Shown here: positions 7,778-37,062 of the stretch, piece after piece
Position numbering within the stretch: position 1 is the first letter of the stretch
How the letters are laid out: each line of letters begins with the position of its first letter
Assembly: GCA_964016885.1 (NCBI GenBank)
Contig: OZ024740.1
Span: 27,094,001-27,158,000 of the forward strand
DNA: 64,000 bases
Source: Eledone cirrhosa
Taxonomy: Eukaryota
Direction of reading: 5' to 3'
Made by a program: the position numbers and the translations under genes
The notes under the pieces: model-generated
What the model was told of the DNA's origin: nothing
The model's input: the letters and a program-made list of their open reading frames with translations, nothing else
Database searches by the model: none

Positions 7778-7796
7778 CTTCTTCTTCTTCTTCTTC

Positions 7797-7844
<48 letters not shown>
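7778..7844 (+). repeat. Compound (TTC)n(TTA)n microsatellite at the left edge of the retrotransposon array
   Basis: Seen directly. Confidence 0.95.
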
Positions 7845-7845
<1 letters not shown>

Positions 7846-8620
7846 AGCTGCATTTATCTTGCTTTATGTTCATACGAGTTATCACCAAGTCACAACCAGT
7901 GACCTCAAGAGACAACAAGGTCCGCCATGTTCAAGAAAGAACATACATACTCACACATGCATCTTTAGTGTTTAGACTTGTGATGTACTTATATTGACAG
8001 AATCTTCCTTAGTATATGGGCAGTTCCCATTAGTACTATCTTTTGTATTTCTCCTATACGTGGGTTTCCTGGGATTTGCGATAAGTAATCATTAGACCCC
8101 TTAGGTATCATTCCTAGAGCGCCTACAACCACTGGTATTGTTTTAGTTCTCAATTTCCACATTTTTCCAATTTCTATCTCTAGGTCCTTATACTTGCTCA
8201 ATTTTTCAAATGTTTTTATATATACATTCTTGTCTATTGGAACAGACATATCAATTAGCAGGCATACCCTCTTTTTAAAGTCCTTCAATATTATATCAGG
8301 TCTATTTGCATCTATTTTTCGGTCTGTTTGGATGCTAAAGTTCCACAAGATTGAGATGTGATCTTTTTCAAGTATGGGAGGTGGTTGATGCTCCCACCAA
8401 TTCTTTTGATGGGGCAGGTCAAAATGCTTACACATTATCCAATGTATGTATTGTGCAGCTCTGTCATGCCTGTTTAGGTATTCGGTTGGAGCTATAGGAC
8501 TGCACATTGAAATTTTATGGTCAATGGTCTCTGGTTGTTTTTTACATACACGGCATAATGGGCTGCATCCATTTTTTTTATTATGTTGGCTTGGTAATTT
8601 TTTGTTGGCAGACACTGATC
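7845..8620 (-). mobile_element. 5'-truncated R4/Dong-like RLE non-LTR retrotransposon (copy D1)
   Basis: ORF 7989-8615(-) has CRVC..ETIDH...C zinc knuckle, RHD, NRPD...IDMSVP..K..KYKDL and VVVGALG. (TAA)n lies on both sides in element orientation. Confidence 0.9.
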
Positions 8621-8869
8621 TTTATTATTATTATTATTATTATGGCCGCACATGTGTGAAGACAGTACAAATCTGCGGGGGAAAAGGTTCGTAACTTTAA
8701 GCTGTTTTAAAGTGTCATTTTTTATATTTTCTTGTCGTTAACGAAACTTAAGGTACACATCTTGATTTAAAGAGAAGGATACCTCTCAATGTTCGGGCTT
8801 TAAGCCCGAATATTCAGATTTATTTTTAAAAACTTCGAAAAAAAATTACTTCCCTACCAAACGAAAATT

Positions 8870-10050
8870 ATGGAAATTTTTGACCTTGAAACAGTAAACA
8901 ACGTTCAGGTCAAAAGTTTAACGGCAGCCACTTTAGATTTCACCACGACTACGACGGCTACAGTCATGCCTGTCATCCACTCTACAGAATGTGAAGGCAA
9001 AACTCAAAAGCTACCATCACAACCTTCTGCGATAGCAGCAGTATCATCTGAAAACGATATCACCACCACCACCGCCACCACCACCACCACAACAACAACT
9101 CAGAGCAATAACGACAATAACACCGACAGCTTCAATGTAAACAAGGATGGCGGTGGCAACACCAATAACAACAGCAAGAATGACAACAACAACAATAAGA
9201 GCATCAGAAACACCAGTGCTTATTGAATATTGATATTGATATTAGCGATAAAGACGAACAGTTGGCCAAAGCGTGGTGGCTAATTAAACGGGAGAGGTCC
9301 TGGGCAAACCTGACTATCTCGGACGAGGCAATAGCGGCCATGCAAAGGAGGACGGTGTTCTTTCGATGTATTTCGGTGCAGACACGAACAGTGGAACTTG
9401 CGAGCCAAGCAGAGGTAGAGGCTGCTTTGGAGTACATCGGAAGTAACATAGAGTACAAAGCAAGAGGCAAACAGTTCGGTACCATATCTGTACTGTTCAA
9501 AACCGAGGCCCTCGCTATTAAGCACTCGGTGACCCCCTGCAGAACGGAACGCATTATCATGCATCCGTCCTATATGGGTAAAAGGACAGTGAAGGTACGC
9601 ATTCCCAGCATCCCACCAGGAATGAACACACAAATACCTGAAATTGCAGACACCACACCTACAACAAACATAGACATACCCAAAACAACACAACCAAAAC
9701 CATCGCCACCACCTTCACCAAAACGAAAACAAATAAAACCACACCAACAATATGTTAAAAACTTCGTGCTTGTCAGAAGAGCCAACGATAAACGGATGGC
9801 CCTTTTAGCGCGAAGCGAGGACATTCAAACAGAGGGGGAGATTTTGAAATGAGCACATTTGCGTGCCAGAAGATTTGCTTCTGGTCCGAATGTCACTCAA
9901 TTCCTTCAAAGAAATTCGAGAGAGCTTTCCTCAAGACGTGGGAACCCCTAATGTGAAACACACATCAAGACTTTTAAAGGGGTTCCCAAAAGGACCCCAC
10001 CAGCCATGGAGGTCGAACCACCCGACCTTCACAAGACCCGGGAAATAAGT
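8870..10050 (+). pseudogene. ORF1 of A1, disrupted by deletions at ~9217 and ~9626
   Basis: ORFs 8870-9226, 9223-9852 and 9863-10048 align in pieces to the ORF1 of A2. Confidence 0.8.
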
Positions 10051-10083
10051 AAACCTTCCCTCTCTCTCTCTTAGCTTACCAAT

Positions 10084-13000
10084 ATGGCCATATTAAGAGT
10101 AGGAAGTTTAAATGTTCGCGGCCTGGGGTCACCCTGGAAGAAGGGTCGCCTTCTCAAAGACCTCCGGTCGCTGGTAATGGCTGTGATTGCCGTCAGCGAG
10201 ACCAGAATTTCCGACACGCGCGCACTAGCCCCCAATTTCGACGACTATCAGATCTTCGCATCTGTTAGCAGGCCGGGAATGGGGGGTGGAGTGGCAGTGC
10301 TGTTGAGGAAAGGACTGGATCTCGAGGTAAGGTCGAACTTCCGGGACCCGAACGGTAAGTTGGTGGTCTTGGATGTGAGCAGTAGCGAAGGTGGTGCCTT
10401 TAGACTGCTGGCCGTCTACGCCCCTACAGGGGCCGGACGACCTGACTTCTTTAGGCGCCTGGAGACCTTTCTGGGTACGTCTCGCCCTTTACTGTTAGCG
10501 GGGGACTGGAATGGCATCTTAGACGCACGCTGGGATTGTGTGGGAGTAGCCGATAGGAGCGGGGTGTGCAAAAGCCTCAAGCACCTACTCAGCCAGTTCC
10601 GACTGTCTGACAGGTATCGACTAGATTTCCCCAATCTGCCAGTATGGACATGGACCAACCGAATGGGATGGGGTCATCTAGATCGTATATAGACAGGATC
10701 TTCATTAGTAAAATAGATAGAAATAGTGTGGGCTGTCCACTTTTTAAAGCGGTCGCCTATTCAGATCACAAATTTGTGATCTGTACGGTCGACCTAAATA
10801 AAACGCGTAGGTTAGGACCGGGTTACTGGAAGCTGAATATGTCATTACTGGAAGCTGAATATGTCATTTCCGGCACGTAGGGCTTACAGGGACTAAGTCA
10901 ACAATTTAGTTAAGCAAAAGTTGACGGGGGATCATCAACAACAGATGGTGGGTGGCTTTCAAACGAGAGATTAGAGTAACTTCGATAGAGTTCAGCAAAG
11001 AACTAGCGTGAAAGAAAAATAGAAAGGAGGGGAGCTGGTAGATAAGTTAGACGAGGCTATTTGTAGTGGCATCACAACTGACGTGCTAGTGGCGAGAATG
11101 GAATTAGACCATTTCTTCAATGCCAAACACGAAGGTTGCATTGTCAGAGCTAAGGCGCGTGCGCTGAGAAACGAGGGAACTAAAGCTGTTCGATGGGCCC
11201 GCGTGGCGGAGGCGTAGCGTGGTAATATAACCACAATTCGGTTTTTGGCGGACCGAGACGGACACGAGATAAGTGATTCCAAGCGGATGTGTGAGGCCTT
11301 TCGCCAGCACTTTGCTCGGTTGTTCAGGGAGAGTGGCGAGTCAGAGAGAGTAGCGGATTTCAGTCCCTACCTTGACGGCTTGCCGCGCATCTCGACGGTC
11401 GACGCTGAGCGCTGCGAAAGGCCGATTACTTCAGCCGAAATTCAGGACGCCCTTGTCGGCTGCATGAGGCGCAAGTCACCCGGTTTGGATGGTCTACCCT
11501 ACGAGCTTTACGTAAATATGCCAGACTTGTTCTCTGAACTCCTCGAAGCACTCTACTGCAACTGGCAGCAGAATGGGAGTATTCCCAGTTCTGTGAGCAG
11601 GGGAGTAGTGACGCTGATAAGGAAAGACGAGAACAAGAGGGATACATTAGACAACTTCAGGCCCATAACTCTGCTCAACACAGAGTTTAAGATTTTGGCC
11701 AAGGTGTTAGCAAAGAGATTGGTTCTTGTCGTCGAGGATTTGGTTGGGGAGCCGCAAACTTGCGCAATCCCAGCCAGGTCCATACACGACAATCTCCACC
11801 TCATGCGATACATCATAGATGAGGTAGGGTGTAAACCTGGCTTCGGTGGGGCACTGATCAATTTAGATCAATCGAAATCATTCGATAGGGTCGACCATCG
11901 GTATCTGGAGTTTGTCCTCAAAGCAGCTGGCTTCGGCCCTGTCTTTAGAAGCTGGATCGTTGCAATGCACAGCGACACATGCTCGGTGGTCAAGGTTAAT
12001 GGCCACCTCTCGGAACCATTTCGGCTCTCCCGATCGGTCCGTCAAGTGTGCCCTCTCTCTTCCCTTCTGTACGTATTGACTCTCGATCCTTTACTGCGGA
12101 AGCTGGAGCTGTTGCAGGGCATCCCGTCGAACCGGCACGTGGAAAGGCGGTGTCGGCTTATGCGGACGACATCACCGTGATGGTGTCGAACACCTCAGAA
12201 ATCGAGCTGGTCGGCACCTTATTGAAGGAATATGAAATGTTGACAGGAGCCAAACTTAACCCGGTAAAGTTGGTGGGCTTGCAGCTCGGAACCTGGAGAG
12301 GCAAGCCCATGCCGTCCAACAGCGTCGTGGGACGCTGGACGGACGGACCGGTAAAGTTGCTCGGGGTTTGGTTCGGACCAGACCTCCAGGTGGAAAAGAA
12401 TTGGGACGAGGAAACGAGCAGAGTAGCCAGTCTCACCCAAAAATGGGCTGGGAGGAAGCTATCACTGAAAGGTCGCGCGGAGGTGGCGAATGCGTACATC
12501 GCGTCCGTCATCTACTACCGCCTGACCGTCGTGCTTTGCCCCCGTCCGCGCCTCGTCAAGCTGGAACGGCTCCTCTTTAAATTCTTGTGGAGGGGACAAG
12601 TTCCGTTGGTGAGGTGGTCCATCTGCTGCCAGCACCCTCTACGCGGAGGGCTGGGCATGCCGTGGCTAATGATGCGCAGACATGCGTTGAGGCTGCGACA
12701 TCTTCAGATATTCTCCCTCAACGGTGAACAGGTGTGGTCGCCGTTTATCAGACGGGCCTTTCCGCAGCTCATTTCTTTGACTGAGCTGCAGTCCTGGGTC
12801 AAGAAGAGACCGAGACTGAGTGACTGGCACCTGGAATCTTGCCAGGCACTCACTGCCCTCTACCAAGCGGGCAATGCGATCAGTGGAACTTCCACTCTCG
12901 AGTTCTATAGAGGATTAGTGGTGGGCAAGTGCGATGACGCATTCGGAGAAGCTTTGGGCCTCGACGAAGTCAGACACTTTTCTCTTCGGCCAATCCCTCA

Positions 13001-13145
13001 TCAACTTCTTCAAGTTTCACCTGGAAAGGAAGGTGAGGGTGGAGAGAGAAGTGCTGCCCCCCCCCCCAGTACATTTGCTAAAAGGTGGGTGAATGTGGCG
13101 AGAATGGCTCGTGTGAATGGGCCTACTCTGACCATGCGCCTATAG
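10084..13145 (+). pseudogene. ORF2 (APE-RT) of A1, frameshifted, C-terminal zinc knuckle deleted
   Basis: ORFs 10084-10692, 10644-10880, 11245-12180 and 12048-13145. Deletion at ~12970 relative to A2. Confidence 0.9.
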
Positions 13146-13436
13146 GCTATCTAACTTGAGAAGAGGGGTGCTCTCCCTGGATGCCCTAGAAGCGCAGGGT
13201 GGTTCAGGAATGGTGGGGTACCTGAAGCACCCCAGCGTCGTACACCCCCTATCGGGGAATTTATTTTGTTATATTTATGCATAGTTTATTTTATATTTTT
13301 ATATTTTCATTGTTAAATTAGTCTTGCCATTGTGCACTTTTACTCCACCTTATTGTAAACCCCCACTGTCCCTGTCTTTGTATTGTCCCCTACATGTCGG
13401 CCCTGGTGGCTAATAAATGAAATCATTATTATTATT

Positions 13437-16400
13437 CTCTACTGAATGTGAAGGCAAAACTAAAAAGCTACCATCACAACCTTCTGCCATAGCAGCAGTA
13501 TCATCTGAAAACGACATCACCACCACCGCCACCACCACCACCACCACAGCAACAACTCAGAGCAATAACGACAAAAACACCGACAGCTTCAATGTAAACA
13601 AGGATGGCGGTGGCAACAGCAAGAATGACAACAACAACAATAAGAGCATCAGAAACACCACATTTGCTGCAGTAGCAGCAGCAAAAACAAAGCGCTTATT
13701 GAATATCGATATTGATATTAGCGATAAAGACGAACAGTTGGCCAAAGCGTGGAGGCTAATTAAACGGGAGAAGTCCTGGGCAAACCTGACCATCCCGGAC
13801 GAAGCAATAGCGGCCATGCAAAGGAGGACGGTGCTCTTTCTATGTTTTTCGGTGCAGGCACGAAAAGTGGAACTTGCGAGCCAAGCAGAGGTAGAGGCTG
13901 CTTTGGAGTACATCGGAAGTAACATAGAGTACAAAGCAAGAGGCAAACAGTTCGGTACCATCTTGTTACTGTTCAAATCCGAGGCCCTCGCTATTAAGCA
14001 CTCGGTGATCCCCTGCAGAACGGAACGCATTTTCATGCATCCGTCCTATATGGGTAAAAGGACAGTGAAGGTACGCATTCCCAGCATCCCACCAGGAATG
14101 AACATATGGTGGCTGCTGGGATGCGTAATCGAGGAGGGGACAGACACCACCCTCCTGGACATCAAAAGGACAGAGAGAGAAGACTGGTCCGGAATGGATT
14201 TGGAGATTCTTCTCCAAATGAAACCGGAGGATATAAATAACATCCCAGATTTTGCCCGCCTGCAGGACGGGACAACAATCCAACTAATGATTGACGGAAG
14301 AAGGCCACGTTGCTTCGTTTGAGGGGAAGCCACGCATCTTCAAGCCTTGTGCCCTCAGCGCAAAAATGCAGGGGGTCGCAAACCTCCTTTGTTGCCAACG
14401 CCAGTGTCAGCACGGAAAGCTGCACCACCACCACCAAAAACAACATCAACAAAAACACGGACACCAACATCAAAAGCAGCCGGATCACCACCAACACCAA
14501 AACCAATCCAAGGAGAAAATGAGGAAAGCTCTCCCACTCCCCCTACCCCCCCCCCCCAACTATATACATAGACAAAAAAAAATAAACGCACACACAGACA
14601 CAGAGACACTCACAGACACAGACCCTTTGTCTTCCAGCAGCGAAGATGAAGGAAAACCCAAAAGTGCAAAAAACAGAGAAAACTCACAAAAAAAAAAGCC
14701 CCAACAAAACACAAAAACACACACAACAAAAAATACAGACACCACTAACGCAGACACTTCCCCAATAACATCAGCACCATCAGCAACATCGACACCACCT
14801 CCACAATCCCCGAAACGCAAACCACCTAAACAAACACAAGTACAAATAAACACACAAATACCTGAAATTGCAGACACCACACCTACAACAAACATAGACA
14901 TACCCGAAACAACACCACCAAAACCATCGCCACCACCTTCACCAAAACGAAAACAAATAAAACCACACCAACAAAATGTTAAAAACTTCGTGCTTGTCAG
15001 AAGGGCCAACGATAAACTGATGGCCCTCTTAGCGCGAAGCGAGGACATTCAAACGAGGGGGAGATTTTTGAAATGAGCACATTTTGCGTGCCAGAAGATT
15101 TGCTTCTGGTCCGAATGTCATTTCCGGCACGAATGTCATTTCCGGCACGTAAGGCTTACAGGGACCGAGTCAATAAGTTAGTTAAGCAAAAGTTGACAGG
15201 GGGGTCATCAACAACAGATGGTGGGGGGCTCTCAAAAGAGAGATTAGAGTAACTTCGATAGAGTTCAGCAAAGAACTAGCGTTAGAGAAAAATAGAAAGG
15301 AGGGGGAGCTGGTAGATAAGTTAGACGAGGCTATTTGTAGTGGCATCGCAACTGACGTGCTAGCGGCGAGAATGACATTAGATCATTTCTTCAATGCCAA
15401 ACACGAAGGTTGCATTGTCAGAGCTAAGGCGCGTGCGCTGAGAAACGAGGGAACTAAAGCTGTTCGATGGGCCCGCGTGGCGGAGGCGCAGCGTGGTAAT
15501 AAAACCACAATTCGGTCTTTGGCGGACCGAGACGGACACGAGATAAGCGATTCCAAGCGGATGTGTGAGGCCTTTCGCCAGCACTTTGCTCGGTTGTTCG
15601 GGGAGAGTGGCGAGTCAGAGAGAGTAGCGGATTTCAGTCCCTACCTTGACGGCTTGCCGCGCATCTCGACGGTCGACGCTGAGCGCTGCGAAAGTCCGAT
15701 TACTTCAGCCGAAATTCAGGACGCCCTTGTCGGCTGCATGAGGCGCAAGTCACCCGGTTTGGATGGCCTGCCCTACGAGCTTTACGTAAATATGCCATAC
15801 TTGTTCTCCGAACTCCTCGAAGCACTCTACTGTAACTGGCAGCAGAATGGGAGTATTCCCAGTTCTGTGAGCAGGGGAGTGGTGACGCTGATAAGGAAAG
15901 ACGAGAACAAGAGGGATACATTAGACAACTTCAGGCCCATAACTCTGCTCAACACAGAGTTTAAGATTTTGGCTAAGGTGTTAGCAAAGAGATTGGTGCT
16001 TGTCGTCGAGGATTTGGTTGGGGAGGCGCAAACTTGCGCAATCCCAGCCAGGTCCATACACGACAATCTCCACCTCATGCGATACATCATAGAGAGGGTA
16101 GGGTGTATAGCTGGCTTCGGTGGGGCACTGATCAATTTAGATCAATCGAAAGCAATCGATAGGGTCGACCATCGGTATCTGGAGTTTGTCCTCAAAGCAG
16201 CTGGCTTCGGCCCTGTCTTTAGAAGCTGGATCGTTGCAATGCACAGCGGCACACGCTCGGTGGTCAAAGTTAATGGCCATCTCGCGGAACCATTTCGGCT
16301 CTCCCGATCGGTCCGTCAAGGGTGCCCTCTCTCTTCTTTTCTGTACGTATTGACTCTCGAGCCTTTACTGCGGAAGCTGGAGCTGTTGCAGGGCATCCCG

Positions 16401-18111
16401 CTCGAACCGGGACGTGGAAAGGCAGTGTCGGATTATGCTGACGACATCACCGTGATGGTGTCGAACACCTCAGAAATCGAGCTGGTCGGCACCTTATTGA
16501 AGGAATATGAAAGGTTGACAGGAGCCAAACTTAACCCGGAAAAGTCGGTGGGCTTGCAGCTCAGAACCTGGAGAGGCAAGCCCATGCCGTCCAACAGCGT
16601 CGTGGGGCGCTGGACGGACGGACCAGTAAAGTTGCTCGGGGTTTGGTTCGGACCAGACCTCCAGGTGGAAAAGAATTGGGACGAGGTAACGAGCAGAGTA
16701 GCCAGTCTCACCCAAAAAATGGGCTGGGAGGAAGCTATCACAGAAAGGTCGCGCGGAGGTGGCGAATGCGTACATCGCGTCCCTCATCTATTACCGCCTA
16801 ACCGTCGTGCCTTGCCCCCGTCCGCGCCTCGTCAAGTTGGATCGGCTCCTCTTCAAATTCTTGTGGAGGGGACAAGTTTCGTTGGTGAGGCGGTCCATCT
16901 GCTGCCAGCACCCTCTACGTGGAGGGCTGGGCAATCCGTGGCTAATGATGCGCAGACATGCGTTGAGGCTGCGACATCTCCAGATATTCTGCCTCAATGG
17001 TGAACAGTGTGGTCGCCTTTTATCAGACGGGCCTTTCCGCAGCTCATTTCTTTGACTGAGCTGCAGTCAAAGCTGGGTCAAGAAGAGACCGAGAGTGGGT
17101 GACTGGCACCTGGAATGTTGCCAGGCACTCACTGCCCTCTACCAAGCGGGCAATGCGATCAGTGGAACTTCCACTCTCGAGTTCTATAGAGGATTAGTGG
17201 TGGGCAAGTGCGATGACGCACTCGGAGAAGCTTTGGGCCTCGACGACGTCGAACTGACCAGTCTGTACCGGAGGACTTTTGAGCCGGGGACGATGGACAA
17301 TTTCCAGAAATCTCTCGCTTGGCAGTGCTACCGGGGGGCACTGCCGGTTCGGGATAAACTCTACAGGCACGAAAGTGCTGTCAGACGGACCTGCCCAAGA
17401 TGCGCACAGAACGACGAAACCGTTCTGCACGCACTTGTGCAATGTCCGTGCATTACTGACTTGTGGAGTTATGTCGAACAGCTACTGTCGCGTCTGGAAC
17501 GAATCCGATTATCGGCCGAGCCCATAGTGAAGATCGAGCCGCCACCTTCCTTAGGTCAGGAAGAGCAGGACATTTTCCTCTGTCTGGTGGCAGTTGCGAA
17601 AGAGATTATATGGTGGACCAGGTTGAAAGGACTAAAGACAGACACTTTTCTCTTCGGCCAATCCCTCATCAACTTCTTCAAGTTTCACCTGGAAAGGAGG
17701 GTGAGGGTGGAGAGAGAAGTGCTTCCCCCCAGTACATTTGCTAAAAGGTGGGTGAATGTGGCGAGAATGGCTCGTGTGAATGGGCCTACTCTGACCATGC
17801 GCCTATAGGCTGGCTAACTTGAGGAGAGGGGTGCTCTCCTGGGTGCCCTAGAAGCGCAGGGTGGTTCAGGATTGGTGGGGTACCCGAATCACCCCAGGGT
17901 CGTCCACCCCCTATTGGGGAATTTATTTTGTTATATTTTGCATAGTTTATTTTATATTTTTATATTTTCATTGTTAAATTAGTCTTGCCATTGTGCTCTT
18001 TTACTCGACCTTATTGTAAACCCCCACTGTCCCTGTCTTTGTATTGTCCCCTACATGTCGGCTCTTGTGGCTAATAAATGAAATCATTATTATTATGATT
18101 ATTATTATTAT
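13437..18111 (+). mobile_element. Tx1-like LINE lineage A, copy A2 (5'-truncated in ORF1, APE domain deleted)
   Basis: Begins right after the A1 (ATT)n tail at sequence matching ~8980. ORF1 relic 13437-15115. RT ORF 15357-17003. CPRC...H...C in 17095-17808. AATAAA at 18073, (ATT)n at 18086-18111. Confidence 0.92.
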
Positions 18112-21704: not shown

Positions 21705-21705
<1 letters not shown>

Positions 21706-22980: not shown

Positions 22981-22981
<1 letters not shown>

Positions 22982-23050: not shown

Positions 23051-23283
23051 TTATTATTATTATTATTATTGAATGCCATGGTTGACGGAGGCTCGGCTCT
23101 GTAAGGTATAGTAATTTTTAACCGTTAAAACAATTGTAAATTGTTTAAAACTTGAACCAAATTGTTGATAAAGACACCCTCCTCCTCGTGAGAGGGGTCT
23201 TTCTGTCCGTTATTTGGCCCTTCGGGGTTAAATAGCCAGTTATTGGGGTTTTGTACCCAAAATTTCATTTTAAACAAAAAAAC

Positions 23284-25377: not shown

Positions 25378-25412
25378 GTGGTCTTTCCCATCTTTTCCAC
25401 TCTATTTTAAAC

Positions 25413-28400
25413 ATGACCTCACTCAGAATAGGCAGCATAAATGCGCGTGGCTTGGGGTCGTCATGGAAGCAGGGTCACCTGCTCAACGACCTCAGGTCAC
25501 TAAACATAGATGTAGTGGCCATCAGCGAGACCAGAATCTCCGAAGCACGGGCCTTCGCACCGATCTTCGGCGGCTACGATGTGTACGCATCTCCCAGCCG
25601 TCCTGGATCGGGTGGAGGAGTTGCTGTGCTTTTTCGGAGAGGTTTGGATCTCGCCATACGGGCCATCTTCCTGGACCCAGAGGGTAAGCTGGTGGTGCTG
25701 GACGTGACCAGCGGAGACGGGCAAGCTTTCAGGCTAGTGGCCGTCTATGCCCCGACAGGAGCAGGGCGGCCTGATTTCTTCCGGCGTCTGGAGACCTTTC
25801 TTGGAACGTCCCGCTCTTTAGTGTTAGTGGGCGACTGGAACGGGATCTTAGATGCACGCTGGGACTGTGTGGGATTAGCGGATAGGGGTGGAGGGTGCAA
25901 GAGCCTCACCAACCTGCTCAGGCGTTTTGAACTGTCTGACAGGTACCGATTGGATTTCCCGAATGTGCCAATGTGGACTTGGACAAACCGCATAGGGTCA
26001 TCCAGATCATATCTAGATAGAGTATTTTGTAGGGAAATAGATAGGTCTAGCATAGGCTGTCCACAATTCAAGATAGTCAGCTACACGGACCACAAATTCG
26101 TGATCTGTGTGCTTGACTTAGATAGGCTTCATAGACGAGGACCCGGCTACTGGAAGCTAAACGCGTCCTTACCAGCGCGCAAGGCCTACAGAGACCGGAT
26201 TAGCGAACTAGTTAAGCGGGCGTTGACGGGGGCCATCGTCAACAACAAGTGGTGGTTTGCTCTGAAAAGAGCGATTAGAATAGAATCGATTAGGTTTAGT
26301 AAGGCTTTAGCAATAGAGAAAAATAGAGCAGAGGGAGAACTAGTTAGAAAATTAGACGAGGCGCTTAGCAAAGGCATTGCGACCGACGTGCTTGCGGCGA
26401 AATTGGCCCTTGACCAATTCTTCAATGCAAAGCACGAAGGCTGCGTTGTCAGAGCTAGGGTGCGTGCTCTCAGACACGAGGGGACGAAAGCCGTTCAATG
26501 GGCCCGAGTGGCGGAGGCGCGTCGTGGCAACAAAGCCACGATCCGGTCTTTGGTGGACCACGACGGGCGCATGCTACTCGATCCCGGGCAAATGTGTGAA
26601 GCTTTTCAGCGACACTTCACTCAGCTGTTCGGGGGCAGCGGGGGGCCGGGTAGAGGGATGGACTTTAGTGTCTACCTCGACGGACTGCCGCGGCTCTCGG
26701 CCACTGAGGCGAAGTGTTGCGAAAAGCCGATAACAGCCGCTGAAGTACGGGAGGCAATGACTGGCTGCACAAGGGGTAAATCGCCTGGTTTGGATGGTCT
26801 GCCCTATGAACTTTACGTACAGATGCCAGACTTGTTCGGAGGCCTCTTGGCGGACGTCTACTGCAACTGGCAACAGAACGGGAGAATTCCCAGTTCTGTG
26901 AGCCGAGGAGCGGTGGCACTGCTGAGAAAGGATCCGAACAAGGGGGATAACATAGACAATTTCCGGCCCATAACTCTGCTAAACACAGAGTTTAAGATTT
27001 TGGCCAAGGTGCTAGCAAAGAGGTTGGCGCTTGTCGTTGGTGGTCTGGTGGGAGAGGCGCAGACATGCGCCATTCCCGACAGATCCATCCACGACAACCT
27101 CCACCTCATGCGATACATCGTAGAGAGGGTAGCTAGGGAACCTGGCACGGGTGGGTCCTTGATCAATTTAGATCAGTCGAAAGCTTTCGATAGGGTCGAC
27201 CATCGTTACCTAGCGGCAGTCCTGAGGGCGGCTGGCTTTGGGCCCGTCTTCAGAGGCTGGATCGCTGCCATGCACAGCGACATCTGCTCTGTGGTAAGAG
27301 TGAACGGTCACCTGTCGGAACCGTTCAACATCATGCGCTCGGTCCGCCAAGGATGTCCCCTCTCGTCCCTCTTGTACGTATTGACTCTCGAGCCATTACT
27401 GCACAAACTGGAGACGTTGAGGGGAGTCCCGCGCGAACTAGGATGCGGAAGATCCGTGTCAGCATATGCGGACGATGTCACCGTAGTGGTGTCGAACGCC
27501 AAACACATCGAGGCGATCGGCACTACACTAAGAGAATACGAAGCGGTGACAGGAGCAATGATCAACCAGGAAAAGTCAGTGGGCCTGCAGCTCGGCACCT
27601 GGAGAGGCAGGTCCATGCCGTCCAACAGCGTCGTCGGGCGCTGGACGGACGGACCGGTTAAATTGCTAGGGGTCTGGTTCGGTCCGGACCTCCAGACGGA
27701 CAAAAACTGGGACGAGGTGACGAGCAGGGTGGCTTCTCTCACCCAGAAATGGGCGGAGAGGAAGCTATCCCTGAAAGGTCGAGCGGAGGTGGCTAACGCG
27801 TACATCGCGTCTGTCATCTGCTACCGCCTAACCGTCGTACCTTGTCCTAAGCCTCGCCTGACTGCGCTGGAGCGTTTGCTCTTTCGCTTTTTGTGGATGG
27901 GACGTGCTCCGATGGTCAGGCGGTCCATCTGTTGTCAACACCCGCTACGTGGAGGGCTGGGCATGCCGTGGCTGATGATGCGCAGGCACGCGCTCAGGCT
28001 ACGACATCTCCACCTCTTCCTCGACGGTGATCAGGTGTGGTCGCCGTTTGCTAGACGCGTTTTTCCCCAGCTCGTTTCCTTGACGGAGCTGCAGTCCTGG
28101 GTCAAGCGAAGACCGAGAGGGAGCGCCTGGAGACTGGAATGTCTTCAGGCGCTCACAGCCCTCGACCAATCGGGCAATGTGATCGGTGGAAACTCCACCT
28201 CAGCGTTCTATAGAGGATTAGTGGAGGGGAAGAGCGACGACGTACTTGGGGAAACTCTAGGCGTCGACGAAAATCAACTAGCCAATCTCTTCGGAAGAAC
28301 TTTCGGGCCAGGGCCTATGGACAACTTCCAGAAATCTCTGGCCTGGCAGTGCTACCGAGGAGCCTTGCCAGTTCGGGATAAACTCTACAGGCATGGAGGT

Positions 28401-28832
28401 GCCGTCAGCCGGGCATGTCCGAGATGCGCGCAGGGCGACGAAACCGTCCTGCACGCACTCGTCCAGTGTCCGAAAATTGCTGACTTGTGGGTTTATGTCG
28501 AACACCTGCTGTCGCGTTTAGGACGGATCCAGCTATCATCTGAGTCTATCGTGAGGATTGCCCCGCCCTCCTCCTTTAGCCGGGAAGGGCAGGCAGTTTT
28601 TATCTGTCTGGTGGCCATGGCGAAAGAGATAGTATGGTGGACACGTTTGAAAGGGCTGAAGACGAGCACTTACCTCTTCGGTGATGCTCTGATTGACTTT
28701 TTCAAATTTCATTTGAAAAGGAAAATCAGAGTAGAGAAGGAAGTGCTCTCTTCCCAGCATTTTGTTGAAAGATGGGTGAGAGAAGCAAGAATGGCCCGAG
28801 TGAATGGGCCGACTCTGAGTATATATCTGTAA
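25413..28832 (+). CDS. LINE ORF2 protein, 1139 aa: APE endonuclease + reverse transcriptase + CCHC
   Basis: SINARG, SET, VYAP, GDWN, YLDR, TDH (APE). KSPGLDG, FRPITLLN, DQSKAFDRV, RQGCPLS, YADD, LGVWF (RT). CPRCAQGDETVLHALVQC. Confidence 0.96.
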   Translation: MTSLRIGSINARGLGSSWKQGHLLNDLRSLNIDVVAISETRISEARAFAPIFGGYDVYASPSRPGSGGGVAVLFRRGLDLAIRAIFLDPEGKLVVLDVTSGDGQAFRLVAVYAPTGAGRPDFFRRLETFLGTSRSLVLVGDWNGILDARWDCVGLADRGGGCKSLTNLLRRFELSDRYRLDFPNVPMWTWTNRIGSSRSYLDRVFCREIDRSSIGCPQFKIVSYTDHKFVICVLDLDRLHRRGPGYWKLNASLPARKAYRDRISELVKRALTGAIVNNKWWFALKRAIRIESIRFSKALAIEKNRAEGELVRKLDEALSKGIATDVLAAKLALDQFFNAKHEGCVVRARVRALRHEGTKAVQWARVAEARRGNKATIRSLVDHDGRMLLDPGQMCEAFQRHFTQLFGGSGGPGRGMDFSVYLDGLPRLSATEAKCCEKPITAAEVREAMTGCTRGKSPGLDGLPYELYVQMPDLFGGLLADVYCNWQQNGRIPSSVSRGAVALLRKDPNKGDNIDNFRPITLLNTEFKILAKVLAKRLALVVGGLVGEAQTCAIPDRSIHDNLHLMRYIVERVAREPGTGGSLINLDQSKAFDRVDHRYLAAVLRAAGFGPVFRGWIAAMHSDICSVVRVNGHLSEPFNIMRSVRQGCPLSSLLYVLTLEPLLHKLETLRGVPRELGCGRSVSAYADDVTVVVSNAKHIEAIGTTLREYEAVTGAMINQEKSVGLQLGTWRGRSMPSNSVVGRWTDGPVKLLGVWFGPDLQTDKNWDEVTSRVASLTQKWAERKLSLKGRAEVANAYIASVICYRLTVVPCPKPRLTALERLLFRFLWMGRAPMVRRSICCQHPLRGGLGMPWLMMRRHALRLRHLHLFLDGDQVWSPFARRVFPQLVSLTELQSWVKRRPRGSAWRLECLQALTALDQSGNVIGGNSTSAFYRGLVEGKSDDVLGETLGVDENQLANLFGRTFGPGPMDNFQKSLAWQCYRGALPVRDKLYRHGGAVSRACPRCAQGDETVLHALVQCPKIADLWVYVEHLLSRLGRIQLSSESIVRIAPPSSFSREGQAVFICLVAMAKEIVWWTRLKGLKTSTYLFGDALIDFFKFHLKRKIRVEKEVLSSQHFVERWVREARMARVNGPTLSIYL

Positions 28833-29093
28833 ACTAAAGGTGGAAAACTGGGAGAGGGCACTTGCCTTGGTGGTCAGGGTCATTGTGGCTTTTTACTGGG
28901 CTTTCTCCACAAATGTCCCTCCGAAGTCTCCCCCCTATTGGGGAATTTTTCATTGTTATTTTCATTGTTATTTTTGTTACATCCTCTGTTTTTGTTTTTT
29001 TTACACGCAGAAATGCCCATTTGTACCGTCCTGCATTGTCCTGCACTGTCCTTAATGTCTACTTTATGTAAACCCTTGTGGTTAATAAAGAAA

Positions 29094-29137
<44 letters not shown>

Positions 29138-29350
29138 GGCGACCTACGTAGGAAATCGTATTATTGTGAGCTCAGCAAATGTTTGTTGTTTTTAGTTGTT
29201 TAAAATTGCAATTTATGGAAATGTTTTATTGTTAACTGTATATAAGTGCTTATACATTGTTTTCTGAAAAGGACACTCAAAATGATTGCGGCCTTGAGCC
29301 CAAATTTAAACTTTTATAATTATCAAACAAACATTTCTTTAAAAAAAATC

Positions 29351-31284
29351 ATGGACGATTCACAGTCACACCTTCCTCACAAACTAACACCTCACACCGA
29401 CACCACCATTGTAAATATTACTACGTTTGCCAACACTAAAAATATAAGCAGTAGCAATAATTTAAATTTGTCACATGCAGGCATTCATTTCCCGCCATTA
29501 CCAATGACTGCAGGTGTTGAAGTTGCCACCCCCACCACCACCACAGCGACAACAGAAACAAAAGAAAAAAAATTATCTCGTGACATCGAAATGGATTCAC
29601 ACAAAACCGACACATCCACACCGAACACCACTGACGCCACTACTACCACAACTGAAACAAAAATAAAAATAATAAAAATAACGATAACAACAACAGCAAC
29701 AACAAAAATGAGAATAAGAAAACCACCCACTCTTTTGCCAGAGTAGCAAAAAAGTGCGAAGCAATCCAGGTAACTCAGGAGGGATTAGATGAGGTCAAGA
29801 GAATGGTAAAGAAAGATGGGTACATGGTCAGCCTCACTCCCCCGCCCCACCTATTAAAATAGAGCATCGGCGCCTATGCACCGTGTCTTATCGGACGATT
29901 AACATAAAATCGCGCCGAGTGGAACGAGCATCCGTGTCCCAAATCAAAAAAGCTTTGGGACATGTGTAGGCACAAAATACCCTCATCAGACGTGGGCAGA
30001 AATATGTAACCGTGGACCTGTTCTTTGGAACACCACAGGAGGCCAGAGAACACTCCATGGCCCCATTAAGAAGTGACGACTTCACACTCGTCCCAGGCTA
30101 TTGTGGCCAGAGACTCGTGAAGATCAGGGTGACCCACGTTCCACCGGCCATCGAAATTCCCTGGCTAATGGCTGCCATCCTCGCCGGCATCGAGGCCAAC
30201 ACCAAGATAATCGAAATAGCGAAAGAAAAGCAGGAGAACTGGTCCGGATCTGGGATGGAGCTCCTGATCCAAGCGGACCAAAAAAGCATTGAGGAGATCC
30301 CAGAGGTAATAAACCTCACTGACGGCAGCCACCTCACTGTAATCGTCGAGGGCAGAAGGTCTAGGTGTGTCGTTTCTGGTGAAGGAACCCACCTAAGGGC
30401 TTTCTGCCCTCAGGCTAAAAGGTTGAGGCCACCTCTCTTACCCACCCCAGTGACTCAATAATAAACACCACCAGAAGCAGAAATGGCAGCAACAACGGTA
30501 GCAGCAACAACAGAAGCAACTGTAACAGCAACAACCACAGCAACAGTAGCAAAACCAACACCATCACCACCCAACGCGCCAGAAATAGCACCAGCTCCTA
30601 CAGCATCCACCACGCCACAACCAAAACTAACGCCTGTGGAGGATTTTCCACTCCCCGACCTATCACAGCTGGAGACAGATTGTGACGACGAGGAGTGGGA
30701 AAAGGTATCAGGAAAAAAGAAAAAAAGAAACCAAAAAAGAAAAAAAATCTCTTCCTTCCCCCTCCAAAAACAAAATACAGAGGGAAACAAATAAACTATC
30801 AAACAAAAAAGTTAGGACAGATATGCCACCATCCACACCAGCATCACCAACCCCATAACCACAAACACCAACACCATCACCATCATTAACCCCAACACGA
30901 CCATCACCAACACCACAAAAGTCACCAAAAAGCGAAACAGTAACAAACCCACAACAAACCCAAACAAAACAAAACAACCAAAACGATACACACTACTCAG
31001 CATTACATTTGAACAACAACCAATTATTACACTACATCCAACACAACGCCAGCATCATAGGAAAAGACTACACAACAACCCAAAAGTTCACACCACCTCC
31101 ACACATAAAAATCACTCGCATCACACAGAAAACGTACACGACACTAAAACAAAAATTCCCCAAAGACATCGGAGACTTCCGACAAACACACTCCAGGAGA
31201 ATTTATAAGGACATCCTTCCGGAGGAGACCACAAGCAGTGAAAAGGATGGTAAAACCATCCTTCCTCTACGAGAAGTAAGGTAA
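29351..31284 (+). pseudogene. Divergent ORF1 of B3 (frameshifts and stops)
   Basis: LVPGYCGQRLVKIRVTHVPP...VEGRRSRC...THLRAFC aligns to B2 ORF1 at protein level. Confidence 0.8.
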
Positions 31285-31318
31285 GTAGTCTTTCCCATCT
31301 TTTCCACTCCATTTCAAC

Positions 31319-34143
31319 ATGATCTCACTCAGAATAGGCGGCATAAATGCGCGTGGCATGGGGTCGTCATGGAAGCAGGGCCACCTGCTCAACGACCTCA
31401 GGTCACTAAACATAGATGTAGTGGCCATCAGCGAGACCAGAATCTCCAAAGCTCGGACCTTCGCACCGATCTTCGGCGTCTACGATGTGTACGCATCACC
31501 CAGCCGTCCGGGATCGGTGGGAGGAGTTGCTGTGCATTTTCGGAAAGGTTTGGATCTCGCCATACGGGCCATCTTCCTGGACCCAAAATGTAAGTTGGTG
31601 GTGCTAGACGTGACCAGAGGAGACGGGCAAGCTTTCAGGCTAGTGGCCGTGTATGCCCCGACAGGAGCAGGGCGGCCTGATTTTTTCCGGCGTCTGTAGA
31701 GCTTTCTTGGAACGTCCCGCTCTTTAGTGTTAGTGGGCGACAGGAACGGGATCTTAGATGCACGCTGGGACCGTGTGGGATTAGCGGATAGGGGAGGAGG
31801 GTGTAAGAGCCTCACCAACCTGTTCAGGCGTTTTGAACTGTCTGACAGGTACCGATTGGATTTTCCGAATGTGTCAATGTGGACTTGGACAAATCGCATA
31901 GGGTCATCAAGATCGTATCTAGATAGAGTATTCTGTAGGGAAATAGATAGGTCTAGCATAGGCTGTCCACAATTCAAGATAGTCAGCTACACGGACCACA
32001 AATTCGTGATCTGTGTGCTTGATTTAGATAGGCTTCATAGACGAGTACCCGGCTACTGGAAGCTAAACGCGTCCTTACCAGCGCGCAAGGCCTACAGAGA
32101 CCGGATTAGCGAACTAGTTAAGCGGGCGTTGACGGGGGCCATCGTCAATAACAAGTGGTGGTTTACTCTGAAAAGAGCAATTAAAATAGAGTCCATTAGG
32201 TTTAGTAAGGCTTTAGCAATAGAGAAAAATAGAGCAGAGGGAGAATTATTCAGAAAATTAGACAAGGCGCTTAGCAAAGGCATCGCGACCGACGTACTTG
32301 CGGCGAAATTGGCCCTTGACCAATTCTTCAATGCAAAGCACGAAGGCTGCGTTGTCAGAGCTAGGGTGCGTGCTCTCAGACACGAGGGGACGAAAGCCGT
32401 TCAATGGGCCCGAGTGGCAGAGGCGCGTCGTGGCAACAAAGCCACGATCCGGTCTTTGGTGGACCAGGACGGGCGCATGCTACTCGATCCCGGGAAAATG
32501 TGTGAAGCTTTTCAGCGACACTTCGGCAGTCCTGAGGGCGGCTGGCTTTGGGCCCGTCTTCAGAGGCTGGATCGCTGCCATGCACAGCGACATCTGCTCT
32601 GTAGTGAGAGTGAACGGTTATCTTTCGGAACCGTTCAACATCATGCGCTCGGTCCGCCAAGGATGTCCCCTCTCGTCCCTATTGTACGTATTGACTCTCG
32701 AGCCATTACTGCACAAACTGTAGACGTTGAGGGTGGGTCCCGCGCGAACTAGGATGCGGAAGATCCGTGTCAGCATATGCCGACGATGTCACCGTAGTGG
32801 TGTCGAACGCCAAACACATCGAGGCGATCGGCACTACACTAAGAGAATACGAAGCGGTGAGAGGAGCAATGATCAACCAGGAAAAGTAAGTGGGCCTGCA
32901 GCTCGGCACCAGGAGAGGCAGGTCCATGCCGTCCAACAGCGTCGTCGGACGCTAGACGGACGGACCAGTTAAATAGCTACGTGTCTGGTTCGGTCCGGAC
33001 CTCCAGACGGACAAAAACTGGGACGAGGTGACGAGCAGGGTGGCTTCTCTCACCCAGAAATGGGCGGAGAGGAAGCTATCCCTGAAAGGTCGAGCGGAGG
33101 TGGCTAACGCGTACATCGCGTCTGTCATCTGCTACCGCCTGACCGTCGTACCTTGTCCTAAGCCTCCCCTGACTGCGCTGGAGCGTTTGCTCTTTCGCTT
33201 TTTGTGGAAGGGACGCGCTCCGATGATCAGGCGGTCCATCTGCTGTCAACACCCGCTACGTGGAGGGCTGGGCATGCCGTGGCTGATGATGCGCAGACAC
33301 GCGCTCAGGCTACGACATCTCCACCTCTTCCTCGACGTTGATCAGGTGTGGTCGCCGTTTGCTAGACACGTTTTTCCCCAGCTCGTCTCCTTGACGGAGC
33401 TGCAGTCCTGGGTCAAGCGAAGACCGAGAGGGAGCGCTTGGAGACTGGAATGTCTTCAGGCGCTCACAGCCCTCGACCAATCGGGCAATGTGATCGGTGG
33501 AAACTCCACCTTGGCGTTCTATAGGGGATTAGTGGAGGGGAAGAGCGACGACGTACTTGGAGAAACTCTAGGCGTCGACGAAAATCAACTAGCCAATCTC
33601 TTCGGAAGAACTTTCGGGACGGGGCCTATGGACAACTTCCAGAAATCCCTGGCCTGGCAGTGCTACCGAGGAGCTTTGCCAGTTCGGGATAAACTCTACA
33701 GGCATGGAGGTGCCGTCAGCCGGGCATGTCCGAGATGCGCGCAGTGCGACGAAACCGTCCTGCACGCACTCGTCCAGTGTCCGAGCATTGCTGATTTGTG
33801 GGTTTATGTCGAACACCTGCTGTCACGTGTAGGACGGATCAAGCTATCAGCTGAGTCCATCGTGAGGATTGCCCCGCCCCCTTCCTTTAGCCTGGAAGGG
33901 CAGGCAGTTTTTATCTGTCTGGTGGCCATGGCGAAAGAGATAGTATGGTGGACACGTTTGAAAGGGCTGAAGACGAGCACTTACCTCTTCGGTGATGCCC
34001 TGATTAACTTTTTCAAATTTCATTTGAAAAGGAAAATCAGGGTAGAGAGGGAAGTGCTCTCTTCCCAGCATTTTGTTGAAAGATGGGTGAGAGAAGCAAG
34101 TATGGCCCGAATGAATGGGCCTTCTCTGAGTATGTGTCTGTAA
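31319..34143 (+). pseudogene. ORF2 of B3, disrupted
   Basis: ORFs 31319-31699, 31727-32752, 32298-32723 and 33028-34143 are near-identical to parts of the B2 ORF2. Confidence 0.92.
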
Positions 34144-34407
34144 ATTAAAGGTGGAAAACTGGGAGAGGGCACTTGCCCTGGTGGTCAGGGCCACTGTGGT
34201 CTTTTAATGGGCTTTCTCCACAAATGTCCCTTGGAAGTCTCCCCCCTATTGGGGAATTTTTCTTTGTTATTTTATTTCAACCTCCGGTTTTTTACACGCA
34301 GAAATGCCCATTTGTACCGTCCTATATTGTCCTGTACTGTCCTTAATGTCTACTTTATGTAAACCCTTGTGGTTAATAAAGAAAACATTATTATTATTAT
34401 TATTATT

Positions 34408-35705
34408 GTTCTTTGAGTCACAGTCATTGATGTTAGTTAACTGGAAGGTTTGTTGAAATTAATATCAGGCCACTATCTGCAGCCTCAGATATTCAGGACG
34501 TATCGGAGGGTTCTTGCTGTTCCCAGCAAGCCTGCCTTTTGAAGCGTTCCAAAAAGCGTGGCGGGGCCAATTTTCTTTAACCATCCCTGGAAACCTTTTG
34601 AGATAGTACCTAGTGCGCCTATGACAATCGGGACCACTTTGACTTCATGGCAGTTCCAAATCCTTTTTACCTCCCACTTTAAGTCCTGGTATCGGTTAAT
34701 TTTCTCCCTCTCCTTCTCTTGCACTCTCGTGTCGAATGGGCAGGCCACATCCACAATCAGGCACGATCTTTTTTTTTTGTCCACAACCACCAGGTCAGGT
34801 CTATTGTGTTCCAGTTTCTTGTCCGTCTGTATCCTAAAATCCCACAGCACCTTCACCTGTTCGTTTTATATCACCGACTCTGGCTTATGCTCATACCACT
34901 TCTCAGAATGTGGTAAATTGTTTACTTTGCATAGGTGCCAGTGGATCACCCTGCCCATCACATCATGTCTCCAGCCCTTATAGTGAGTATGGGCTAGGTG
35001 TTTACACTCGGATACAATGTGAGCCACAGTCTCCTGTCTCTATCCAGTGAGCTAGCCCCCTCCTTGTAAATATGATGTTTCAACCACTTCGTTTTGAGGG
35101 CCTGCTCTTGCACAGCCATTAGAATTCCTTCTGTAGCCTTTTTAAGGTCTCCTCTTTTCAACCAGTTCCATGTCTGTGGATCTCTGAATTCAGTTTTCTC
35201 AAAGAAGGTACTATGAAGGGATTTTTCATGAAGGCTGCTCTTTCTCCTTGTTGTTATTTCCTCCCTGGACATCCCCTGGTCTATTGTCCTCTCCTTCAGT
35301 ACAGTTCTGAGCATTGGCTCCTTACTATCAGTCACGTATTTGTGTGGGTTGTTTTTCTCCATCTGAACACAGTCCTCTATGCTGATAAGACCTCTTCCAC
35401 CTTCAGATCTCCTTAAGTAGAGTCTATCGACATCACTCCTTTTGTGGAACATGTTGTAGATAGTCAATAGCTTCCTAATCTTCCTATCCATTTCTTTTTG
35501 TTCAGCAACATTCCATCTCAGAATTCTCGCACTGTACCTAACAATAGACACAGCTCGGGAATTTACTCCACTTATGGCATTCCTACTGTTCAGATGTGAC
35601 TTCAATACGCTCCTTACTCTTCGAATGTATTCAGATCTTATCAATTCCTTCATTTTTTTTTGTTCTTTATGTCATCAACCTCTAGAACACCCAAATACTT
35701 GTATC
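34408..35705 (-). mobile_element. 5'-truncated R4/Dong-like RLE element (copy D3, different subfamily from D1)
   Basis: YKYLG..., DVDRLYLRRSEGGRGL, ETVAHIVSEC, NRPD...VDVACP...YQDL and IVIGALG. The 3' end abuts (TAA)n and the 5' end abuts (GAA)n at 35706-35739. Confidence 0.9.
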
Positions 35706-37062
35706 CTTCTTCTTCTTCTTCTTCTTCTTCTTCTTCTTCGCCCACCTATTCCAGAGTGGGTGGTGGTGGCGGCGTCATTCTGATATAGTTTCGATGTCAT
35801 CTTTTACCGATTCCTCTGTTATCTGGTTTAGAGATTAGATTATTTCTTAGATTTTATTAAACAATCTACGAGAAGTAATATATATTTCAATTACATCCAC
35901 ATTTTCTTGTTTCAGCTGATTAAATAAATTTAACGCTATTTATTGTATAATGATTTGCGAATGAAGCCAGTGACGGTTTAATACATGATCCAATCAAACA
36001 TAACATTTTCTCAGGATTTTCCAAGCTTTTACTGGATATGCGTGTTAGATTAGTGTCGCTATGTTCACTTGAACTTCACTACCAACTTTTGACAGATTAA
36101 TTACTCATGGTGTTTAAAGCTGATAGAGATGCCACAGCATGTTTCTTTTATCTCCTACCATTTTTATAACCTTTAATTTGGTATCGAATAATATTAATTT
36201 ATACTTTTGAGACATTATGTCATAACAAATGTACAGAATCTAAACTATAATAAAGTAAGGAGTGCGGGACTGCATCCAGAATGTTTGTTTTTTTTATCGC
36301 GTTTGTAAAATAAGTTGGATTACTTTGAATACATAATGAATGAATATTACATAATTTATCTACTAAATTTCCTTATTTTAATTTAAATATAAATAATTTT
36401 GTTGTTTATTTAAAGATTCACTTCTTTAACATTTTCAAATGTCAACACTTCCGGTTAACGATTGCTTAAATAAACATTCATATAATTGCGTCACTAATTT
36501 TCTCCTAATGCAGTTTATATATAATATCGTCTTTTCTTAATGTATCATAGATTACGTTACTGATTACAGAAGACAGTGTAACGCAGTCTTCGTTCAATTT
36601 CTGTGTATTTTGTCAATTACGATGTTATTTGATGTATCATATCTACATGTATATATACTTGCCTATAATATCAATATACACACTACACATGCTAGCAGAA
36701 AACCACCCGAAGTGTCGTTTTTCTGCTAGTTAGTTTTAAAGACACTTCCGTTATACTATGTAATTACGAAATTGTTACGCAAGTGTTAGGTTGCAGAACA
36801 AAACCTCCATCACTCAAAAGCTATATGTTCGTTATTTTACGTGTTAATGATGCAGTGTTAAGGTACGTTGTTATAAGCTTTTGTTCACAGAAAGACATAA
36901 AACGAAATATTAGTGTATTTCTATTCGCACCTATATATCTACATGAATGCATCCGCACATATATTTCGAAAGCATACATACATATATACATACATACATA
37001 CCCGCTTGAACGAAAATATGACTGAACTTGAATTTGTGGACATACATATATGATGACTGCAA

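Follow-up and report, generated by a model that had tools for sequence, protein, structure and literature searches.

In the genome of the octopod Eledone cirrhosa, Tx1-like retrotransposons insert into (ATT)n microsatellites and accumulate there in co-oriented arrays, one of which is the starting point of this report. It occupies positions 7778-35739 of a 64,000-nt stretch of DNA (hereafter the window; contig OZ024740.1, or C1, positions 27,094,001-27,158,000, in a 3.0-Gb assembly) and consists of nine insertions of long interspersed nuclear elements (LINEs) with (ATT)n junctions, namely six plus-strand copies of L1/Tx1 type (T1 to T6) and three minus-strand fragments (D1 to D3) that fit Dong/R4-like LINEs. 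A preliminary description of the window had proposed independent insertions of an (ATT)n-specific Tx1 group, and the analysis confirms that the array is real, that it was built from independent insertions and that the Tx1-like family it exemplifies targets ATT throughout the genome. That ATT is the target of these elements, and not merely their tail, we regard as very nearly certain.

ATT as insertion target across the genome

Copies were counted in the assembly with exact sequence patterns for heads and 3' ends. Heads of the T5 type are preceded by an exact in-phase ATTATTATT, that is (ATT)3, in 2,291 of 2,369 cases (96.7%), and heads of the T6 type in 2,090 of 2,240 (93.3%), so that the 5' flanks are far from random, as the notion of an (ATT)n-specific group had implied. 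The same bias was found in 63 copies of lineage B, the lineage of T4, T5 and T6, which were sampled outside the window from 1-44 Mb of C1 and whose 5' ends were placed, four of them by hand. Of these copies, 38 are full-length, 22 are truncated and three have other DNA in place of their 5' part. A stretch of 9 bp or more of ATT lies within 15 nt upstream of 37, 10 and none of them, respectively; in 19 arbitrary 10-kb regions such a stretch is present at only 0.19% of positions, which gives a binomial p of about 5e-22 for the truncated copies. The flank enrichment sought at the outset is thus present in truncated copies as well, and 25 of the 38 full-length copies follow ATT without another Tx1 tail in front. 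By a published yardstick, more than 20% of flanks of one sequence kind (PMC4494074), both the heads (93-97%) and the truncated copies (10/22) lie above the threshold, whereas (TTC)n stands directly at the 5' junction of a single sampled copy, and of T4 in the window, and the (TC)n/(TTC)n target of the Kibi and Koshi families is therefore not the one in use here.

On the other side of the element, ATT is found two bases past the conserved 3' end in 61 of the 63 copies. Because several of them carry only ATT or ATTA at that junction (sampled copies 6, 14, 24, 25 and 40), this ATT is probably for the most part target DNA and not an added tail; copy 30 is flanked by a 16-bp target duplication that includes non-repeat letters. 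On their downstream side, the 63 copies adjoin a Dong-like tail in 24 cases, a Tx1 head in 13, a short interspersed nuclear element (SINE) in three and other sequence in 23, and 7 of 13 (ATT)5+ tracts in arbitrary regions touch one of these elements. Dong-like elements supply many of the ATT targets of the Tx1-like family, which refines the original picture. The strand bias anticipated for such a family is also present: the 28-nt lineage-B 3'-end pattern has 6,573 exact matches in the genome, and among the first 100 of them 23 of the 99 neighbour gaps measure 7.5 kb or less (1.3 expected for even spacing), all 23 joining copies on the same strand.

Architecture of the array in the window

All nine (ATT)n junction tracts listed in the preliminary description are in place (7798-7844, 8621-8643, 13425-13436, 18086-18111, 21661-21704, 22926-22980, 23050-23070, 29096-29137 and 34387-34407), accompanied by (CTT)n tracts at 7778-7798, 21712-21819 and 35706-35739. 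The array opens with the compound microsatellite (CTT)7(ATT)16 (7778-7844, plus strand), which is followed by D1 (7845-8621, minus strand), a 5'-truncated Dong/R4-like LINE recognized from its translation, homologs and family copies, with a C-terminal CCHC finger, a PD..D..K-type motif and (AAT)n on both sides. T1 (8644-13424, plus) belongs to lineage A and retains its head, although it is internally deleted and decayed; a head related to it was found after ATT at another locus (L185). T2 (13437-18085, plus), of the same lineage, is 5'-truncated and has its endonuclease region deleted, and T3 (18112-21660, plus), placed in a third lineage by sequence comparison and trees, is truncated inside the endonuclease domain. 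Behind it lies a 114-bp segment of 9 bp and an imperfect (CTT)36 (21705-21818) which matches no element and whose junction 21-mer is present once in the whole assembly. This segment is probably host DNA, and the block is for that reason likely to represent a compound (CTT)/(ATT) locus that holds two sub-arrays, each about 14 kb long; the earlier statement that no unique host DNA separates the insertions probably fails at this one spacer.

The second half begins with T4 (21819-22925, plus), a 1.1-kb 3' fragment of lineage B with its 5' junction at (CTT)n, and with D2 (22981-23049, minus), a 69-bp 3' end of the D1 family that is identical to D1 throughout, including a minority 3' variant with 495 genomic matches. 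T5 (23071-29095, plus) is a full-length lineage-B element in which open reading frames 1 and 2 (ORF1 and ORF2) are both open. T6 (29138-34386, plus) joins a lineage-B ORF2, 95% identical to that of T5, to a different head and ORF1 (about 42% amino acid identity), and is internally deleted and decayed. D3 (34408-35706, minus), assigned from its translation and family copies to a second Dong/R4-like family, is 5'-truncated, has an (AAT)n tail, and its 5' end is joined to (GAA)11 exactly where the sequence of the element itself reads GAAGAA. The array closes with a (CTT)11 tract (35707-35739, plus), beyond which the flank is single-copy in the assembly.

The Tx1-like copies, all on the plus strand, fall into three lineages with differing 5' ends. 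Identity amounts to 95-96% between T1 and T2 (ORF2 and 3' end) and 92-95% among T4, T5 and T6, and falls to 77-84% between T3 and the latter group and to 70-81% between T1/T2 and the remaining copies. Co-orientation and the presence of at least three lineages, both asserted beforehand, are borne out, and the three lineages, the different 5' ends and the different deletions argue for independent insertions over tandem duplication.

Coding content and class of the elements

The T5 ORF2 (25413-28832, plus, 1139 aa) matches the Pfam families Exo_endo_phos, RVT_1 and zf-RVT, corresponding to an N-terminal apurinic/apyrimidinic-type endonuclease (APE), a reverse transcriptase (RT) and a C-terminal zinc motif; its best solved structure is human L1 ORF2p (E 5e-52), and the closest named protein, from Argonauta hians, is 73% identical over half of the query. 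The nearest sampled copy is 99.75% identical to T5. The T5 ORF1 (23284-25377, plus, 697 aa) has no significant Pfam match, its knuckle C-x2-C-x4-H-x4-C being read directly in the sequence, and its core resembles RRM/zinc-knuckle proteins, with Atlas matches to zf-CCHC and ZCCHC3-type RNA-binding clusters (0.90-0.93) that serve as a lead only. ORF1 proteins of the Tx1 clade have an RNA-binding domain and a CCHC knuckle. On the RT tree, the family falls (support 98) together with fish and frog proteins and one that bears the name 'Transposon TX1 149 kDa', apart from two presumed vertebrate-type and two plant L1 rows. The Tx1 side of this tree is represented by such proteins and not by curated references, and the fork is provisional. 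Unnamed proteins of 40-50% identity (P0002-P0069) form the sister group of the octopod family on the trees; a metagenome scan for the unnamed sister proteins of 40-45% identity returned no loci, and phage records gave no match. A search of the array for known ribozymes and RNA families produced six matches, all far below gathering scores, and a simple pattern for ribozymes like that of hepatitis delta virus (HDV) was found in none of 12 head regions.

Two structural features of the non-coding regions were noticed in passing. Most head types have a strong hairpin, with an AT-rich outer stem, a G/C inner stem and a T-rich loop, located some 40-80 nt upstream of ORF1 (window 23211-23235 and 8803-8829; loci L077, L089, L122, L133-L137, L155, L159-L160 and L168); its arms are changed yet still pair among otherwise unlike heads, and it is degenerate in T6. 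A hairpin-like motif of a C-run, TATT and a G-run in the 3' untranslated region (window 13251-13261, 28930-28948 and equivalents) is kept in copies with ATT tails and in relatives with ATCT tails, and may possibly be a recognition signal for the RT. A SINE-like repeat with a Tx1-like 3' end, followed by ATT in most of 66 matches (L031, L057, L062, L065, L066, L087 and others), is likely to be mobilised by the Tx1-like family and also forms head-to-tail runs.

At the C-terminal end of their translations, D1 to D3 carry a CCHC finger and a PD..D..K-type nuclease motif. A CCHC finger and a PD-(D/E)xK nuclease after the RT, in the absence of an APE, is what we take to be the mark of the R4/Dong class, and on this assumption the three fragments fit Dong/R4-like LINEs, a class unlike that of the Tx1-like copies. 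Their homologs are long RVT_1 proteins, the APE family being present in none of the 120 listed, and a search among solved structures gave no match. Dong elements use a restriction-like nuclease. In the D1 family most of the visible 5' truncation points adjoin (AAT)n and one adjoins (GAA)n, in a sample biased by having been taken beside ATT-flanked Tx1 copies. Three D1-family copies (L053, L061, L078), all preceded by (AAT)n, begin at one and the same internal position, which lies about 1 kb from the 3' end, and a short non-autonomous derivative is a possible explanation of this shared start.

Arrays elsewhere and copying from the neighbour

The 28-kb array in the window is not exceptional in this genome. 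At C1 55.42-55.46 Mb, five T5-type copies and two Dong-like fragments extend over about 32 kb, and three-copy arrays lie at 56.16 and 57.08 Mb of the same contig. Among 16 adjacent pairs with a headed upstream copy, four have a spacer that contains informative letters and is exactly duplicated on both sides of that copy, over 34, 43, 43 and 885 bp; the longest of these duplications holds an 811-bp Dong-like fragment that is 100% identical in both places, although divergence between the Tx1 copies next to it is 0.5-0.9%. At 57.08 Mb, the middle and downstream copies of the array are identical for 1,298 nt, where 40 differences would be expected, and then differ at 147 sites, and the first copy equals the middle one for 563 nt apart from an indel (9 differences expected). 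Substitution-free head tracts of this kind occur in 2 of 11 same-head adjacent pairs, and none of 217 non-adjacent pairs reaches 5 expected differences. The best reading of these duplicated spacers and heads is that a nick is made at the start of the spacer, after which the cDNA invades the resident copy and copies its head and spacer. Such neighbour-templated duplication is a minority route, and the array in the window contains no case of it. The expectation that each insertion leaves a new target, so that an array keeps growing, agrees with the ATT found on both sides of the copies, but it has to be widened, since Dong-like tails also supply targets and part of the growth of arrays elsewhere includes local duplication. 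Chimeric copies were also encountered (L041, L089, and T5 compared with T6), with at least six head/ORF1 types on related ORF2s, and head swapping is frequent.

Related lineages and changes of target

The Tx1-like family belongs to a wider radiation with a shared 3' end, for which a degenerate pattern has 38,877 genomic matches, compared with 37 for the reversed control. Judged by eye, the first 100 matches continue into ATT in 36 cases, into ATCT, (AT)n or (CT)n in 50, into a single fixed sequence in 13 and into none of these in one. Sixty stretches containing 74 ends were fetched, chosen by tail class, and of the 67 ends that it was possible to anchor, 65 show the tail class expected from their lineage as judged by sequence similarity. 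Among 30 short copies of the ATCT lineage, 12 carry ATCT-type repeats at the 5' junction (background 0.33%) and none carries ATT, some of the 18 others being alignment breaks and not true ends; short copies of the ATT lineage have ATT there in 13 of 35 cases and ATCT in none. The 5' part of one truncated ATCT-lineage copy enters the left edge of the window (1-712, minus), where (ATCT)7 stands at its 5' junction (713-741); the 3' end of this copy lies outside the window and likewise runs into ATCT repeats. All 13 copies examined of the third lineage are bordered on each side by a 72-bp repeat unit, and the position of each junction is the same throughout; six of the 13 come from one array. The 72-bp unit also occurs beside one ATT-lineage copy (L042), and the flanks shared by the loci with this repeat (L132-L142, L042) suggest that it is located inside a dispersed repeat.

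These elements, close relatives with three targets in one genome, have about 60-70% identity in ORF2. Two changes of target class are needed on the endonuclease tree (46 rows) as well as on the RT tree (61 rows). The ATCT and 72-bp lineages form one branch (100, 100) within which the 72-bp lineage is nested (100, 99), and as the ATT lineages fall outside this branch, ATT is likely to have been the ancestral target. Both trees were derived from query-anchored alignments by a quick search, with Shimodaira-Hasegawa-like approximate likelihood ratio (SH-aLRT) supports only; near-identical and long-branch rows were excluded, and in rows c26, c27 and c62 the RT included is that of a neighbour. The hairpin loop of the endonuclease, which affects the specificity of the L1 and Tx1L enzymes (PMC1950540), reads NR-I-G in 16 of 20 ATT rows (two have M, one T, one a gap) and NR-S-G in 8 of 9 ATCT rows and in all 13 of the 72-bp rows, and the loop after YAP also differs between target classes. 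Because all of these differences fall on one or two branches of the tree, they are candidates only, and not evidence, for determinants of the target.

Proposed mechanism and alternatives

We think it fairly probable that the array is a pile of separate insertions whose targeting is led by an endonuclease nicking the AAT strand, each insertion likely duplicating a piece of the repeat and thereby leaving a place for the next copy to land alongside. According to this scheme, the APE domain would nick the (AAT)n strand, reverse transcription would be primed by the pairing of a few AUU letters at the 3' end of the RNA with the strand so cut, and the 5' end would be joined by homology, through upstream AUU for a full-length RNA and through microhomology for a truncated cDNA. 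Where a resident copy lies just downstream, the cDNA could invade it and copy its head and spacer. ATT would flank the new copy on both sides, and the (AAT)n tails of Dong-like elements would provide further targets. In the window, a host locus of the form (CTT)7(ATT)n-spacer-(CTT)n likely received D1, T1, T2 and T3 in its ATT part, and D3 likely entered the CTT part, its tail then taking T4, D2, T5 and T6. The sister lineages likely shifted to (ATCT)n and then to the 72-bp repeat through changes in the endonuclease. This scheme is supported by ATT on both sides, by the single orientation, by the mixture of lineages and ages, by duplicated interrupted spacers and by opposite-strand Dong-like elements in the same repeat.

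Several points weigh against it. Nicking of (AAT)n by the endonuclease is deduced from insertion sites, and the hairpin loop barely differs between target classes (I or S, at one place). ATT precedes 37 of 38 full-length copies and only 10 of 22 truncated ones (p 5e-6); of the 12 truncated copies without a long 5' ATT run, about six have either a duplication or a short ATT at each end, four have nothing, and (TTC)n and (AAT)n account for one each. Specificity thus looks looser than the full-length figure implies, and full-length copies may owe some of their 5' ATT to the RNA; the excess of ATT in full-length copies, together with the exact phase of the heads, suggests that the full-length RNA carries upstream AUU which anneals to the target. 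All fetched samples come from the first 58 Mb of one chromosome (C1), both cases of head identity come from the single array at 57.08 Mb, and most spacers are pure ATT, which is unable to reveal a duplication. No empty allele was seen, either in four read runs or in the assembly, where the right flank is single-copy and a second haplotype is missing. Reads and contigs of the same runs over 17001-37000 are too short, skip the repeats and derive mostly from other copies, and neither support nor refute the array as assembled.

The strongest competitor, which we consider unlikely, holds that targets are chosen by base pairing: the nuclease would be relaxed, or natural breaks in microsatellites would be used, only ends that pair with a read-through (AUU)n would prime, and a new tail would bring about a switch of target. 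Within each lineage the 5' flank is always of the same kind as the tail, ATT starts the 3' junction even amid (ACT)n or a minisatellite, and the near-constancy of the hairpin loop between target classes is as this explanation would have it. However, every copy of the 72-bp lineage is joined to its repeat, on either side, at a single constant position, several ATT copies have a 3' ATT too short for much pairing, and the Tx1L endonuclease is specific by itself (PMC1950540). An endonuclease-led choice of target is retained as the better account.

Far less probable are two further explanations. If ATT were part of the element at both ends, as a 5' repeat and a tail, and sites were otherwise random, the exact in-phase junction of the heads and the higher frequency of 5' ATT in full-length copies would follow; truncated copies, however, cannot carry the head and still begin at ATT in 10 of 22 cases, 24 of the 63 copies adjoin the tail of an unrelated Dong-like element, and one-strand clustering of neighbours is 18-fold over chance, so that this explanation is largely refuted. 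The array might equally be thought to stem from tandem duplication, unequal exchange or an error of assembly, for which the reads provide no test. In its favour are, at other loci, a 395-bp truncated copy repeated with the same break point (L184) and two truncated copies with common flanks (L055), and in the window the identity of D2 and D1 with their common minority variant; yet the six copies, 70-96% alike, belong to three lineages with differing ends and deletions, and the middle copy at 57.08 Mb, outside the 1,298 nt matching its downstream neighbour, differs throughout from both neighbours, contrary to a recent unequal exchange. Random insertion followed by selective removal of copies outside microsatellites, which has no specific support, is scarcely credible given that young copies (98-99.8% alike) already sit at ATT, that junction phase is exact and that sister lineages of the same genome occupy different repeats.

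A bolder extension of the favoured scheme, which we hold to be doubtful, is that an uncatalogued Tx1 radiation with tens of thousands of copies in octopods switched targets twice, from ATT to ATCT to the 72-bp repeat, via few changes in endonuclease loops, with self-seeding arrays and routine copying of heads and spacers from the neighbour. If true, routine copying from the neighbour would explain why full-length copies are many and why heads and ORF1s are swapped.

Other repeats in the window

Outside the array, a separate RT-coding LINE fragment (2343-3911, minus; Pfam RVT_1) lies inside another dispersed repeat, and positions 2519-2799 and 3960-4520 match 54480-55295. A frame of 282 codons (5693-6541, plus) has an RT-like YRDD motif and no Pfam match, and is possibly Penelope-like. 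Large simple and minisatellite blocks with (GTG)n, 55-bp, 11-bp and 61-bp units are found at 42777-43786, 44714-47578, 48335-52028 and 60076-60933.

Comparison with known systems

The general kind of element, a Tx1 retrotransposon that targets repeats, is already known, with families described on (TC)n, (TTC)n, (TTCC)n, (TTTC)n, satellites and transposons (PMC4494074; PMC3812793); the series of three targets in close relatives and the neighbour-templated duplications go beyond routine. No ATT-specific Tx1 element was found in the literature searched, and subscription journals and Repbase, where one could be catalogued, were outside that search. In Octopus vulgaris, L1-Tx1 is represented by 13 recently active families and by 80 consensus families covering 56 Mb (PMC13282606); the word 'target' is absent from the main text and supplement of that study, and the available text of this and other cephalopod work annotates L1-Tx1 and Dong-R4 without mention of targets (PMC13282606, PMC8967140, PMC10294476, PMC9115989). 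Target choice in microsatellites by APE-type retrotransposons has been described as poorly understood (PMC3812793), and three targets among close relatives with young, apparently complete copies make the question of control by nuclease or by RNA tail testable by swaps, a question that bears on retrotransposon-based site-specific gene insertion. The arrays illustrate how, in a cephalopod genome of large size, a microsatellite becomes a 30-kb repeat block as LINEs of two unrelated classes provide targets for one another, and neighbour-templated completion of the 5' end is a possible route for the exchange of ORF1 and head.

Like Kibi, Koshi and the crocodilian microsatellite families, the elements described here are Tx1-type, APE-bearing and located in short tandem repeats; they differ in their use of (ATT)n, their sister lineages occupying (ATCT)n and a 72-bp repeat, in their invertebrate host and in their tens of thousands of copies, the comparison with Kibi and Koshi being one of target descriptions and not of reference sequences. 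Tx1L of Xenopus has a sequence-specific endonuclease and inserts specifically into another repeat (PMC1950540), and the 72-bp lineage behaves like Tx1L and Tx1-Mar in this respect, although its target is different and three target classes here share one 3' end within one recent radiation. TAA microsatellites are a known target of Dong, DongBg of a snail being one instance (PMC3812793); cephalopods have abundant Dong-R4 (PMC13282606, PMC8967140), and the R4 clade has a restriction-like nuclease (PMC4640811). D1 to D3 fit Dong in their TAA-type target, but, unlike the Tx1-like copies, they stand on the opposite strand, and they explain three of the nine insertions, not the other six. R2 makes uniform 5' junctions when its RNA carries upstream target sequence (PMC3774820), and L1 is reported to undergo templated insertion from nearby homologous DNA as a minor event (bioRxiv 10.1101/2024.08.27.596794). 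The likeness to both lies in a 5' junction that would be set by annealing of the cDNA to the target or to nearby homologous DNA; here, in contrast, no known ribozyme was found in the heads by RNA family search or HDV-like pattern, and the template would be a resident copy of the same family beside the target, which yields duplications of up to 885 bp and a borrowed head.

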